Below, in pieces: positions 35,301-41,300 of a stretch of 64,000 bases of DNA (positions are counted from its first letter, which is position 1; every line of letters begins with the position of its first letter). Origin of the DNA: Escherichia coli. Its GTDB lineage: Bacteria > Pseudomonadota > Gammaproteobacteria > Enterobacterales > Enterobacteriaceae. A program made the position numbers. The stretch is taken from assembly GCF_045037415.1 (NCBI RefSeq), contig NZ_CP173438.1, one strand, 5' to 3'.

Positions 35301-38300
35301 ACCTGAGGATCGTCTTCCCGCCCACTGTAACGATCGCTGTCCTGTTCACGTTGTTTCAGCAGAGCCTCAGCCAGTTCAACTTCACGACGCAGTTTTTCAG
35401 AACGGGTACCGAACAGCATCCGGCGCAGTTTTTCTATCTGAGCCCGCAGATGTTCTATTTCCCGTTCATCTTCTTCGATCTTTTCTTCGGCACGTGTCAG
35501 TGCAGAGCGCAGGAAGGCTTCCGTCTCTTCAACCAGACTCAGTTGCTGGTCTTTCTGACGGAGGGCTTCAGCCTGCTCAGAGAGCAACCTTTCCAGCTCT
35601 GCGATGCGAATGAGGTATTTCTGACTCATGACCGTTTTTATAATGCGGTCAGGAGTTTTTTACAACATTGTCAGTGAGTTACGGCTGGATGTTTTTGGCT
35701 GACGCCAGTCCAGCTTATCGAGGAGCATTGCCAGTTGCGAGCGGGTAATGGATACCTTGCCGTCACGTACCGCAGGCCAGATAAACTGGCCTTCCTCCAG
35801 GCGTTTGGTGAACAGGCACAGACCATCAGCATCAGCCCAAAGAATTTTGACGGTGTCACCCCGTCGGCCACGGAAGATAAACAGGTGACCGGAGAAGGGA
35901 TTATCATTCAGCACATGTTGTACCTGTTCTCCCAGTCCGTTGAAGGATTTACGCATATCGGTAACGCCGGCAACGAGCCAGATACGGGTACCTGATGGGA
36001 GTGAGATCATCTTCCCCTCCCGGTCAGTTCACGGATCAACACTGTGAGCAGCTCTGGCGATGGATTTTCCAGCGTCATGTTACCGTGACGGAATTCCACC
36101 TTGCAGGAACTGGCACTGACTCTGGTCTGAGTGGAAGTGGATAAAGACGGCGCAATGGCCGCCACAGGTTCTTTCTGCTCATCCGGCGTTATTTCTACAG
36201 GTAATAATTCAACGCCAGTGTCAGAAGAGGTCGTTACCGGAAGACGCCGCGAAACACGCCCTTCGTTCTGCCAGAGCCTGAGCCATTTGAAAATAACATT
36301 ATCATTGACGCCATTTTCACGTGCAATCTGTGCAACACAAGCTCCAGGTTGTGATGCCAGTTCCACCATACGAAGTTTGAATTCATTCGAATAGTTTTTA
36401 CGAGGTTCTTTTCGCCAGTCCTGTAATTCCATACTTAGATGTCCGTCTATATCAGATGGGCGTCTAAGTTACCAATTCTCGTCTGATGGCTACATACGGC
36501 GGTCAGTTTACGCTTACCAAAAACTGGTCACAATTTCAGATTTTTTCCAGTATCTATTTTCCGATTCGTTCGGCGGTAATCCACCGTTATATTCATGAGG
36601 CCGGAGTGCACTATAAAAGTGTATGCGTAAACCGACTGCTGTATGTAGCCATTAAGCCTGTATTGGTAACATAGGTACCCACCTTTTCAACAAGTGGACA
36701 CCTGTTATAGAACAAAAAACATTATCAGCAGAACCCCGCAGGTCATTTTCAAATGAGTTTAAACTTCAAATGGTTAAACTGGCTTTACAACCAAGGGATT
36801 CTGTTGCCTGTATTGCCCGGGAGCACGATATCAATGATAATCTTCTGTTCAAATGGCTCAGGCTCTGGCTGATCAAAGGGCGTATATCACGGCGTCTTCC
36901 GGTAACGAACTCTTCTGGCATTGGCGTTGAATTATTACCTGTGGAGATGACGCTGGATGAGCGGCCTTACCCCGTTTTTACGCGAGGTAATTATGAAGAT
37001 CAATGACTAGCCGTCGAACCGTGTGCATGAACTGCTGTACTGAAACTTCTCAGCTGTAAAATAATCCTTACGCTACGTACTTCTCGGAGCGCTTACGATT
37101 AATCAGATGCAGTCCTAACTGGAAGAAAGAAAAATGGAGAAAATAAGAGGAATTAATATCCTCCACGTTCCTGAAATCCTGGAGGATATTAATGTCATCA
37201 AAATATTAGCGAACGATAATCCCTAACAAAATACCCAGTGCGCCAAAGTCAGCATCACTGAAGGTGGTGTTAGCAAAACCAATATCACCCAGCACAGGCA
37301 ATAAGAATACTGACAGGAAGGTAATAAGCAAGCCTTGCGCAAAGGCACCCAAAATCGCACCACGACGTCCACCCGTTGCATTACCGAATACCCCTGCAGC
37401 TGCACCTACGAAGAAGTGCGGCACCACACCAGGAATAATCACGATCATGTTCAGCAGATACAACGTGAACATACCGATTAAACCTGCAGCAAAGCTACTC
37501 AGGAAACCAACCAGTACAGCGTTAGGTGCGTAAGGGAAGATGACCGGGCAATCGAGAGCAGGTCTGGCATTCGGAACCAGCTTGTCTGAAATACCTTTGA
37601 ATGCCGGGACAATCTCCGCAATCACCATGCGCACACCCTGCAGAATGATGTACACGCCAGCTGCGAAGGTAATGGATTGCATGATAGAGAACATGAACCA
37701 GTTTTTACCACCGCTAAGCTCTTTCACCGCATCTGCACCCGCAAACAGGCACGTCAGCAGGAAAATTATGATCATGGTAAAAGAGATAGCAACCGGCGTG
37801 TCGCGCAAGAACAGCAGACTTTTCGGCACATTCATGTCTTCAGTCGAGTGCTCTTTATTACCAAACTTGCTGCCGATGAAACCGGCCAATACATAAGATA
37901 ATGTTGAGAAGTGGCCGATGGCAACGTCATCAGAACCGGTCACTTTCTTCATGTACGGATGAGCAATAGCCGGGAAAAAGACCATTGCCACGCCAACAAC
38001 CAAAGAGCCAACGGCTATAAGCGTAATGCCGGTCATGCCTGCTGTTGCCAGAATTACCGCTACCATCATCGACATAAACAACGCCCGCAGCATGAGAATG
38101 GACAATAGACATTCGGGAGGATTTTTTCATATAAATCTCCTTGCTCATTTTTAATGAACGAAGGAGGAGACGACGGAGAAATCACCTTCCTGAACGGGAT
38201 CAAGCTACCACTGTCGGATCCGCCACACTCCCTGAACCATGTTTTTTAAGGGTCATACCACCAAAAGGTCGACGGCTGCTTCCTTCGCTATATTAGACTG

Positions 38301-41300
38301 CCAGTTTTACCGGGGAGTTTCTGAGACTCGGGACGGGGTTTCACACATGGAAAGTTTTTTAATATTTCGTTTTCCATTTCAATTCGTTGTAGCTTTTTCT
38401 TTAGCTCACGTAGTTTGATTTGTTCCGGTGTTATCAGGGAGGCTTTTGGCGTTTACCCTGACGCTCATCACGCAGTTGTTTGAACCATTCCGTCATCGTG
38501 GAAAGACCAACATCCATAGCCTTAGCAGCGTCAGAAACAGTGTAATTTTGATCGACAACCAACTGAGCGGATTCACGTTTGAATTCAGGACTGAAATTTC
38601 TTCTTTTCATAGGTGCACCTGTGTTGTTCTAAGGTGAGCATATCACCCTGTTCAGATGGCCAAATTCAGTAGACCACTTCAGCCCTGAATTCGACTTTTA
38701 CAATGACTTATCTGGACGCATGAAGAACGTCAGAAATATACCAATAATAAGCAATGCGACGGAACCGTAGAATGGTAAACTCCAGTTGCCTGTTTTGTCG
38801 ATAATGATGCCAAAGACGATAGGTGAAATAATGCCGGCGACAGCGGAACCGGCGTTCATCAATCCGCTGGCAATTCCCACATACTTCGGCGTAATATCCA
38901 TCGGGACGGCCCAGATAGGCCCTATGGTCAACTCAAGACAGAAGAACGCCACACTCAGACATATAGTCATAATGAGCAACGAGTCAGTATTTATAACCGG
39001 GACGAGCAGAAATAGTACGGAGATAAAGCTGAAAAGAATGACGTTACGCCGGGCTGCTACTAGATTGCCAGTCATCTTCAGCACTTTGTCGCTGATTACG
39101 CCACCAACCGTATTACCTACTACACCGGACAGAAATACGCCGGCAGTAAAGAGCGCCGATGACTTAAGATCCATGCCGCGACCATGCATAAAGAAAGTTG
39201 GTAACCAAGTAAAAAACAACCAACTTGTCCATCCGTAACAGAAATAAACTCCCATTGTCGGTCCCATTCGTTTTATCAGGGCTCTCCATGGAGTAGGCTC
39301 AGCTTTAACTTTTAGATCTTTTTTCTCGAAAATTGGTACGCCTTCTAGTTCTTCTTCGGTCATACCGCTGTGGTCTCGTGGGTCATCTTTATACGATATG
39401 ATCCAAGATATTAACCAGATAAATGTGACAATAGCCAAACTGATAAATGCGCCACGCCAAGACCAAAATGCCACTAATGCAACAATAATGGGGGGAGTAA
39501 TCGCATTTCCCAAACGAGAGAATGAGTGCGTAACGCCCTGAACAAAGCCACGCTGCTGCGGCTTGAACCAGTAGGTGATCGCTCGCGCCTGAGAAGGCAG
39601 CGCCGCACCTTCCCCTACACCTAATAGCAATCTGGCGAGGAATAGTGATATAAAGCCACCGACGAAACCAGTCGCCATGGTTGCTATAACCCAAATAATG
39701 CCACAAAAAATGATCATGCGGCGTGAGCCAAGTCGATCAACGAACCAGCCACCGATGATTTGAAAAACTGCATAGGTATAAGCAAAAGCAGAAAAAATAA
39801 CGCCGAGTTCTGTATTACTCAGTCCGAGTTCATCTTTAATCAACCCCGCAGTAGCTGATAAGTTTACTCGGTCCACATACATTAGGAATGACATTGCGCA
39901 AAATAGCGCAAGTATCTTGGTTCTGGCTTTTATTTGTAACATTTTTGTCTCCTAAACTAGCGTTAAATTGCTAGTAAATAATGTCAATTAGTTACATATA
40001 TTAGCAACGCCCCAACATTCATCTATTTTTTTACTCTGTAAACCATAATTATAAATAATACGGTTCAACGTGCTTCGAGGGACGCTTTTTGGCTTGTTAT
40101 TCCGCTTTAACCATGGCTTATGGCTAAGGCGGAATAACATAAAAATAACTTCATTCAATAAAATCAAAAAAGAATATATAAATACACTAAGATTTAGAGA
40201 TCTCAATTATCTTTATGCACTGTAGATGCCATTCTAGCTGCAACTGCAATAGCCCGCTCTGTGGCCAGAGTTTTTGCTATTCCCTTGCCTGCAATATCAA
40301 ATGCAGTGCCATGTTCCGGTGTTGTAATAGCAAATGGAAGCCCTGCGGCTACAGTTATGCCCACATCAAAGGAATGAAGCTTGGTGGCAATCTGTCCCTG
40401 GTCATGGAACAGGGTAACGACAGCATCATATTCATGATTAAATGCATGAATAAAAACAGTATCACCCGGTACTGGGCCATACATATCCATCCCTTTCTCG
40501 CGGAAGCCTTCAATGACCGGAATGAGAACATCAATTTCTTCCTTACCACAGGTTCCTCCATCACCGGCATGAGGATTAAGTGCTGCAACCGCTATTCGTG
40601 GATTTTCAACGGCCGCCATACGTAATGTGTCATAGCATAACTGAATCGAACGACTGACATTTTCTGGTGTAATATGGCTGGCAATATCTTTGAATGGAAT
40701 ATGTCCCGTCACGCGAAAAACCCAGAGGTCACCAAGGACATTCAACAGGCCACGAGGTTTATCCAAATATCCTAACTGCTCAGCAAAGAGATAATGTTCG
40801 TCCTCAATATCCCAGCCCCCCTTCTTGAAAGCTTCTTTATTGAGTGGAGCGAAGACAAAACCGTCAATTTTACCTGATTTAAGTAATGACATACAGGTTA
40901 CCAGTGATTCTCCTGTTGCATAACCTGAGTCGGTATCAATGGTGCCCATAGTTAGTTTTTCGGGATTAAAATTTTTCAAATCAAGTAATGGTACATTTCC
41001 CGTAGTCCAGTCAGCTTCAGTGGGATCACTGATGACATTCCACTGAAAATGCACACCAGCAATCTTTTGTCCAAGAGCAAGTACCCGGGCATCGCCAATC
41101 AGAACAGGTCTGCAATATTTATAGACAGTACCATCAGCTACGACTTTGGCAACCAGTTCAGGTCCAATGCCGGCAGCTTCACCTAAAAAAATGCCCAGTA
41201 CTGGTTTACGTTCCATTATTCACCTCTAATTATCAAAAACAGGATTCAGTTTGTTTCCTTATTTCCGGGCAAAACAAATTATGCCCGTAGTTATTACATG

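Follow-up and report, generated by a model that had tools for sequence, protein, structure and literature searches.

A truncated UlaA-family PTS permease gene in the leuX island of E. coli ST131, probably left by recombination at a short microhomology

Why does a shortened PTS EIIC-like membrane protein gene stand by itself among insertion sequence (IS) remnants, and what took the rest of it away? To answer this we analysed a 64,000-nt stretch of an Escherichia coli genome (contig NZ_CP173438.1; hereafter the window), which belongs to the genomic island GI-leuX of ST131 and is 100% identical to JJ1887 over 36400-38800. An earlier note had described a 299-aa EIIC-like protein without the N-terminal third of its family, and this description is accurate. 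The mechanically called ORF (37206-38105, minus strand, TTG start) matches Pfam PF03611 (EIIC-GAT) with residues 9-299 (E = 1e-102, 344.6 bits), covering only profile positions 123-394 of 394, and NCBIfam NF006919 at positions 124-414 of 415 (433.7 bits, cut-off 380). Its first 7-8 codons are IS110-derived DNA read in another frame, not EIIC. The remainder corresponds to residues 128-418 of an intact EIIC; 127 aa (30%) are gone, and the fragment does not contain a full-length EIIC domain with both inverted repeats, V-motif 1, HP1, TM3 and TM4a included. Nor is this the natural size of a stand-alone family: 101 of the 120 closest homologues have 418 aa, none of the 120 points to such a family of about 300 aa, and the few short ones are sporadic truncations at internal Met codons. 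The truncated gene, which has no premature stop, is already known as RefSeq pseudogene AX202_RS24530 (JJ1887, NZ_CP014316.1; 'PTS ascorbate transporter subunit IIC, incomplete; missing N-terminus'), an annotation from which the breakpoint and the adjoining IS110 remnant are missing. The features discussed below are collected in Table 1.

Table 1. Coordinates of the truncated EIIC gene (EIIC') and its neighbours in the window
Feature	Position	Strand	Details
ISEc23, complete (IS66 family)	32539..36517	-	tnpA 36007-36432, tnpB 35660-36010, tnpC 34061-35629; Pfam domains, RefSeq names
ISEc45-like IS110-family element	~32759-34187		nested in ISEc23
IS3-type right-end remnant	36526..36620	-	C-terminal codons of IS3-family transposase
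IS66-family remnant	36621..37096	+	476 bp, internally deleted; left IR GTATGCGTAAACC..., tnpA' ORF 36770-37006, tnpC 3' end 37010-37096, right IR ...GCGCTTAC
Native terminator hairpin of the PTS operon	37152..37193	-	perfect 14-bp stem, then T-rich tail, just 3' of the EIIC stop
EIIC' pseudogene	37206..38083	-	codons 128-418 and stop of a 418-aa UlaA-family (PTS L-ascorbate family) EIIC
Chimeric 66-codon ORF	37930..38130	-	IS110 transposase ATG (good SD), EIIC' DNA read out of frame
Deletion junction	38079..38083		5-bp microhomology CAACG, common to EIIC (codon ~127) and IS110-family tnp (nt ~47)
IS110-family left-end remnant	38084..38355	-	272 bp; 225 nt non-coding (38131-38355), AAGGAG RBS, ATG 38130, first 47 nt of transposase gene
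IS911-like left end	about 38356..38681	-	IRL TGAAGTGGTCTACTGAATTTGGCC..., outer end 38681; orfA' 38610 down to ~38357
MFS transporter gene, intact	38698..39942	-	414 aa; K-12 pseudogene yjhE is its 3' remnant

At the same site, other E. coli carry an intact EIIC(418)-EIIB(95)-EIIA(147) gene set with a divergent LacI-family regulator, so the proposal that a sugar-PTS operon was lost here and the ORF is its scar holds. The intact operon is carried by ~18% of the complete E. coli genomes, Nissle 1917 being one. Its EIIC (WP_000345347.1 / WP_000345346.1; CFSAN061761, EC3, Nissle 1917, clone D i14 and others) is 97-100% identical to the fragment over residues 128-418. Compared with one intact allele (P0001) the fragment is identical at 291/291 aa, and window DNA and a contig carrying the intact allele (L013) agree at 1328/1328 nt. 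Since the retained part is identical to an allele still in circulation, the loss was recent, and for the same reason the reading frame is still open. Intact loci share with the window the downstream terminator (a terminator-like site at 37164-37146 falls inside the common block), the adjoining IS66 tnpA remnant and an upstream aldose-1-epimerase/FucP-like/ribokinase/DeoR cluster, of which the aldose-1-epimerase gene is the same in both; the window copy differs in having lost codons 1-127 and the EIIB, EIIA and LacI genes. A tblastn search of the 64-kb window with the cognate EIIB and EIIA, UlaB/UlaC and SgcA/SgcB (E <= 1) returned no EIIA or EIIB apart from one 14-aa noise match, in keeping with the earlier statement that no such partners lie nearby.

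Which operon was lost? The earlier note pointed to sgc, the PTS cluster of the K-12 island KpLE2, and to IS activity as the cause of the damage. Against UlaA the intact protein has ~31% identity; against SgcC, BLASTP gave a 52-aa alignment without significance (E = 2.2). Judged by sequence, SgcC is not an orthologue of the lost operon's EIIC. SgcC itself, the putative EIIC encoded in that cluster, is presumably to be classed with the galactitol-type EIIC proteins. The sgc genes also lie in the leuX island, ~20 kb from the IS911B/yjhE junction that is the K-12 counterpart of our locus, and the identification of the lost operon with sgc must therefore be dropped.

The UlaA alignment also shows what the fragment lacks. 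Its break falls directly after the position of UlaA His135, and of the UlaA pocket positions (Thr86/Tyr87, His135/Ile136/Gln139, His194/Gln195, Asp314, Ile358/Phe362 and Met410) the equivalents of 86, 87, 135 and 136 are deleted, leaving the substrate pocket incomplete, while those of His194, Asp314 and Phe362 are kept. In UlaA, whose published description we followed for the structural elements (V-motif 1 comprising TM1-2, HP1, TM3 and TM4a), binding and transport need Thr86/Tyr87 in HP1, His135/Ile136 in TM4a, and Gly58 and Ser59 in V-motif 1 (PMC6048161).

We defined the junction by comparing the window with three other loci (L002, L005 and L004). On one side EIIC is interrupted; on the other lies a 272-bp remnant, placed between EIIC' and the IS911-like piece and inserted in the IS911-like left end, that the earlier list of flanking elements overlooked. 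Its non-coding left end runs directly into the first part of a transposase gene of the NF033542 type, and it is assigned on these grounds to the IS110 family. Its identity is 97.4% with L005 and 90.6% with L004, where a complete element encodes a 446-aa transposase (NF033542, E = 1e-76). In both loci the IS110 homology runs on past the junction, and neither an IS terminus nor a target duplication is found at the EIIC breakpoint. Because the breakpoint lies inside EIIC and inside the IS110-family transposase gene, with microhomology between them, we conclude that this was an illegitimate deletion and that the break is not an IS terminus. Homologous recombination through the IS110 pseudogene that lies beside the LacI gene in L002 and L003 was considered and rejected, as that pseudogene does not match the window remnant.

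These observations bear directly on whether transposition itself, by insertion or by an IS-adjacent deletion, could have truncated an sgc-type operon in a KpLE2-like island. The island is indeed the equivalent of KpLE2, sharing the fec genes, leuX and the IS911/MFS(yjhE) junction with K-12, it is dense with nested IS elements, and IS1 and ISEc52 have since inserted nearby. The nesting that the earlier note saw is thus real, but the breakpoint lies 47 nt into the transposase coding sequence and within EIIC, and this, together with the UlaA-type rather than SgcC-type affiliation of the protein, makes such an origin very unlikely. The most probable explanation by a wide measure is that EIIC' is what one illegitimate recombination at a microhomology left of a UlaA-family EIIC gene in the ST131 leuX island: its 3' part (codons 128-418), without function.

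The other flanking remnants named earlier (IS66, IS3-type, and IS911-like with a frameshifted orfA) are all present. The IS911-like left end has the TG... terminal inverted repeat of an IS911-type element followed by an orfA collinear with IS911 (HTH_Tnp_1, PF01527, E = 5.9e-9). Aligned to K-12 IS911B, this orfA' is frameshifted by a 1-nt deletion at 38454/38455, and it is cut off by the IS110 insertion; RefSeq also notes it as a pseudogene. On the other side of EIIC', the IS66 remnant has GTAAGCG-type terminal repeats (36621, 37096) and a TnpA HTH (HTH_Tnp_1, E = 2.6e-6), which place it in that family; its tnpA' is 73% identical to ISEc23 tnpA, its tnpC part is 90-93% identical to IS66 tnpC 3' ends, and 64 nt of it are repeated in inverted orientation at the end of ISEc23. 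The same remnant is found in strains with the intact PTS (L002, L003, L011, L013). Next to it, the IS3-type remnant matches the 3' ends of IS3-family transposase genes; an IS911-family transposase pseudogene in L003 is 81% identical to it. The insertion of ISEc23 has separated this remnant from its terminal repeat, TGTAGTGGTCAACAAAAACT, now at 32519-32538. ISEc23 has GTAAGCG... inverted repeats and an 8-bp target duplication (CAAAAACT at 32531-38 and 36518-25), and its insertion is absent from JJ1887. The limits set by the earlier note, 36526 and 38681, correspond to this target-site duplication and to the outer end of the IS911-like piece.

How widespread is the truncation? The truncated form occurs in ~391 of 5426 complete E. 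coli genomes, EC958 among them, and is therefore not an assembly artefact. The retained part of the operon was found in 1344 genomes and the deleted part in 956; the difference, 388, is close to the 391 truncated genomes, which fits loss and not relocation. In some sublineages IS1 and ISEc52 have inserted at or beside the EIIC' remnant, ISEc52 at its 5' end, suggesting that its disruption is tolerated.

The distribution of the flanks leaves some room for a different history. leuX islands are mosaic. High-identity copies of the full right-hand block (MFS-PdxA-UxaA) are confined to the ~393 genomes of the ST131-type set, and the left-hand block is found widely. Moreover, the arrangement expected before the deletion, in which IS110::IS911-MFS would adjoin the PTS operon, is absent from L005, L017 and L018: in L005 and L017, which carry the IS110::IS911 nest, a Dpd island follows instead, and in L018, an isolate labelled ST131 that has the intact operon, the right-hand context is another. 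The junction might thus have been imported ready-made, or formed between two leuX-island variants during horizontal exchange, and not by deletion in the island of the ST131 ancestor. We consider this unlikely, though less so than the other alternatives discussed here; the data do not tell the two origins apart. Either way the identity of the feature would be unchanged, and a microhomology junction would still need an illegitimate joining event.

Taken together, the comparisons suggest the following course of events, in which we infer a single deletion in situ. In the ancestor, whose arrangement ~950 complete genomes would still have, EIIC probably closed an EIIA-EIIB-EIIC operon that had a divergent LacI-family repressor, and an IS110-family element would already have sat inside an old IS911-like copy beside the MFS transporter gene. 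A single illegitimate recombination at CAACG would then have joined EIIC codon 127 to nt 47 of the IS110-family transposase gene. Lost in this step would be the promoter of the operon and its regulator, EIIA, EIIB and EIIC codons 1-127, together with the remaining IS911-like sequence and most of the IS110 element. According to the UlaA alignment, the EIIC codons lost in this way would include V-motif 1 (TM1-2), hairpin HP1, TM3 and the His135 position of TM4a.

Could the remnant nevertheless be expressed? Its ORF is intact, runs in the same direction as IS911 orfA' and the IS110 left end, and is fixed in ~391 genomes, as would be expected if read-through from these elements and a TTG or internal ATG start gave a product with residual or new function, such as a half-transporter or a dominant-negative partner of UlaA-family permeases. 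However, zero divergence from the intact allele accounts for the open frame without selection, the closest homologues show no stand-alone family of such size, and insertion of ISEc52 at the 5' end has been tolerated. No Shine-Dalgarno sequence precedes the in-frame TTG/ATG codons of EIIC', and the strong upstream start, the IS110 ATG with its AAGGAG, does not share their frame. Were the region transcribed, its translation product would, from the sequence, most likely be the 66-codon chimeric ORF. A promoter scan of the minus strand between 38084 and 38700 found no consensus-like site. Expression of a functional EIIC' is accordingly hard to credit. We infer that function has been lost, since the cognate phosphoryl donors are missing, one structural repeat is halved, the substrate pocket is incomplete and no Shine-Dalgarno sequence is in frame.

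The 225-nt non-coding end of the IS110 remnant might itself still be active. It could yield a guide (bridge) RNA, as a live orphan gene directing a related IS110-family recombinase in trans (for example that of the ISEc45-like copy 4 kb away), or could act as an outward promoter from which the 66-aa chimeric peptide, or a transcript of EIIC' that has some regulatory role in ST131, is expressed. We regard either activity as highly improbable. This left end has no structured-RNA match in Rfam and folds no better than shuffled sequences (z-score +1.19), and its diverged copies are too few for a covariation test.

In itself the remnant is of little importance beyond marking the lineage with the ST131-type leuX island. 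It does document a recent case of metabolic (PTS) gene loss, and two corrections follow from it: what was lost is a UlaA-type EIICBA/LacI cluster, not sgc, and the cause lies in a microhomology deletion into an IS110 element nested in IS911, not in a transposition end. The intact operon is the more interesting object.

Among known systems, its EIIC can be compared with UlaA (SgaT), the L-ascorbate permease of K-12 (PDB 4RP8/4RP9; Pasteurella UlaA, 5ZOV), with which the intact protein shares PF03611 (phmmer E = 2.5e-50), although it is shorter at the C-terminus (418 versus 465 aa). The lost operon also differs from ula in having a LacI-type regulator instead of UlaR and no adjacent ulaDEF-like genes. 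For the right flank, the nearest known counterpart is IS911B/yjhE in KpLE2, where the same IS911-type left end abuts the same MFS 3' end (89.9% identity over 580 bp, 96% in the MFS part). There IS30 has inserted into the IS911 copy, within a few bp of the site that the IS110-family element occupies in the window, and only a 3' remnant of the MFS gene, yjhE, is left, whereas in the window that gene is intact.

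A 299-aa ORF with a TTG start occupies 37206-38105 on the minus strand of the window. Its residues 8-286 match Pfam PF03611 (EIIC-GAT) with an E-value of 1e-102, but the match takes in only 123-394 of the 394 profile positions; in the NCBIfam model NF006919 ('PTS ascorbate transporter subunit IIC'), positions 124-414 of 415 are covered. Judged by these matches, homology to EIIC is far above chance and the N-terminal third is absent, as the earlier note had observed. A length of 418 aa is shared by 101 of the 120 closest homologues (86-99% identity to the fragment), and the fragment, here called EIIC', corresponds to residues 128-418 of the intact protein. 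Intact P0001, encoded on comparison locus L013 from sample ERR11172738, is identical to it at 291/291 aa, and the L013 contig is identical to the window at 1328/1328 nt. This indicates that the truncation is evolutionarily young, and since identity to the intact allele is complete, the open frame of EIIC' requires no selective explanation.

The intact operon, seen in E. coli CFSAN061761 and EC3, one metagenomic contig and one Armenian isolate, runs EIIA (147 aa), EIIB (95 aa), EIIC (418 aa), with EIIC last and a divergent LacI-family regulator (343 aa). It lies at the same site, with the IS66 tnpA remnant and the aldose-1-epimerase/FucP-like/ribokinase-like/DeoR cluster of the window beside it, and the block common to it and the window extends from 36518 to 38083. 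The proposal that the fragment is the scar of a lost sugar-PTS operon is thus borne out. The absence of EIIA and EIIB partners was also correctly noted: tblastn of the window with the cognate EIIB and EIIA, UlaB/C and SgcA/B gave no match. Among 5426 complete E. coli genomes, the retained EIIC segment occurs in 1344, the deleted segment (EIIC 5' end, EIIB, EIIA and LacI) in 956 and the truncated arrangement in 391. As the difference between the first two (388) is about 391, we conclude that the deleted genes are wholly absent from the truncated genomes, i.e. lost and not moved. The intact cluster (13466-15514 in comparison locus L002) is present in ~950 complete genomes (~18%), including Nissle 1917, and no catabolic genes adjoin it. 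Its LacI-family regulator is closest to the GntR and IdnR sugar-acid regulator models, with scores below their cut-offs, which hints, speculatively, at a sugar acid or lactone as substrate.

The breakpoint can be read from the junction sequence. The intact EIIC of L002 and the window are the same up to ...GACATAAACAACG, and beyond this point the window tracks an IS110-family element (97% identity to comparison locus L005, 90% to L004), whose own sequence reads ...CCAATATCAACG before the junction and CCCGCAGCATG... after it. The motif CAACG (38079-38083) is present in both parents; by our own estimate, far fewer than 1% of random junctions would show microhomology of at least 5 bp. Since IS110 homology runs on past the junction in both L004 and L005, the break is internal to the element, 47 nt within the transposase CDS (ATG at 38130); on the other side it falls in EIIC codon 127. 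Truncation by IS activity, as first suggested, does not fit a break internal to both genes, with microhomology and no element end. The first seven codons of the mechanical 299-aa ORF are IS110 sequence in a different reading frame. A good AAGGAG ribosome-binding site precedes the IS110 ATG and the ORF opened there has 66 codons, out of the EIIC frame; no Shine-Dalgarno sequence was found before the in-frame TTG and ATG codons of EIIC'. On the ST131-type chromosome JJ1887, RefSeq gives the gene pseudogene status under the label 'PTS ascorbate transporter subunit IIC; incomplete; missing N-terminus'. Altogether, EIIC' is an ordinary pseudogene, already annotated, produced by a microhomology-mediated deletion that took place recently in an island thick with nested IS elements.

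An alignment of the intact protein with UlaA (PDB 4RP8/4RP9; E-value 2.5e-50) puts the break directly after the position of UlaA His135. UlaA is laid out as V-motif 1, core 1, V-motif 2, core 2 and TM11; its substrate pocket is lined by Thr86/Tyr87 (HP1) and His135/Ile136/Gln139 (TM4a), and Gly58 and Ser59 of V-motif 1 have a role in the elevator movement (PMC6048161). By this alignment, the fragment would lack V-motif 1, HP1, TM3 and the His135 position. It is also without its own promoter, regulator and both phosphoryl-transfer partners, and sublineages tolerate ISEc52 at its 5' end and IS1 nearby. From the missing parts, missing partners and tolerated insertions we infer that EIIC' has lost its function.

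Features surrounding EIIC' in the window
Feature	Position	Remarks
Intact MFS gene	38698-39942 (-)	3' end abuts IS911-like piece
IS911-like left end	about 38356-38681	IRL and orfA with 1-nt frameshift at 38454/38455; host of IS110 insertion
IS110-family left end	38084-38355	full element in L004: 446-aa NF033542 transposase
Native terminator hairpin	37152-37193	
IS66-family remnant, internally deleted, 476 bp	36621-37096	tnpA' at 36770-37006
IS3-type right-end remnant	36526-36620	terminal repeat at 32519-32538
Complete ISEc23	32539-36517	splits IS3-type remnant; 8-bp duplication CAAAAACT
ISEc45-like IS110-family element	about 32759-34187	inside ISEc23, in 3' end of its tnpC gene

All three flanking remnants described earlier (IS66, IS3-type and IS911-like with frameshifted orfA) were found; the IS110 remnant bearing the breakpoint had been overlooked. 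Guide (bridge) RNA of the IS110 family ('RNA-guided transposase') would be encoded in the non-coding left end, of which an orphan 225 nt (38131-38355, minus strand) is kept here without transposase; this stretch showed neither an Rfam match nor excess fold stability. Each of the 467 genomes that have the element carries one copy. The ISEc45-like element is absent from this locus in JJ1887 and, among complete genomes, is present here only in IPCEC42 and IPCEC48. The same ISEc23::ISEc45 composite occurs elsewhere in ~500 records, and in L002 an ISEc22 copy has ISEc45 at the corresponding site, which points either to spread of the composite or to site-specific targeting of the 3' ends of IS66-family elements. 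A partial Rfam match to the AfaR sRNA (36610-36699, minus strand; model positions 26-119 of 234) scores 42.5 bits, below the gathering score of 100, and overlaps the IS66-family remnant at its left inverted repeat. As PAI II-AL862 has both AfaR and a deoK operon (PMC7545054), the match may be common island or IS sequence, not an sRNA gene.

Positions 36400-38800 are 100% identical in many ST131-type chromosomes, including JJ1887, JJ2434, ZH193, O25b:H4 and EC958. With tRNA-Leu(CAA) at 47745-47829 and the fec operon upstream, the window represents the leuX genomic island, already described in ST131 as GI-leuX (PMC4134206). Together with the shared IS911B/yjhE junction, this upholds the proposed equivalence to K-12 KpLE2. 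The K-12 pseudogene yjhE is a 3' remnant (254 bp, 96% identity; 38682-38935) of the MFS gene intact here, and because the junction is common to K-12 and ST131, the IS911 left-end insertion is old. The sites at which IS911 orfA is interrupted, by IS30 in K-12 and by the IS110-family element in the window, are within ~5 bp of each other. Directly upstream of the IS nest, a DeoR regulator, ribokinase-like kinase, FucP-like permease and aldose-1-epimerase-like gene (~27900-32300, both strands) look, from annotation and literature, like the deoQKPX (deoxyribose utilisation) operon of pathogenic E. coli islands. On the other side (39942-45000, both strands), a cluster of MFS, PdxA-family dehydrogenase, UxaA-family dehydratase, DHDPS-family and IclR regulator genes occurs at high identity only in ~393 ST131-type genomes; the allele in other strains is ~85-93% identical.

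Overall, the observation in the earlier note was confirmed and its interpretation held in part: the lost operon was not sgc of K-12. BLASTP of the intact 418-aa protein against K-12 SgcC (437 aa) gave nothing significant (E-value 2.2), whereas UlaA matches that protein at 31% identity over 398 aa, and in K-12 sgc lies ~20 kb from the IS911B/yjhE junction. The lost operon is a separate cluster of UlaA type.
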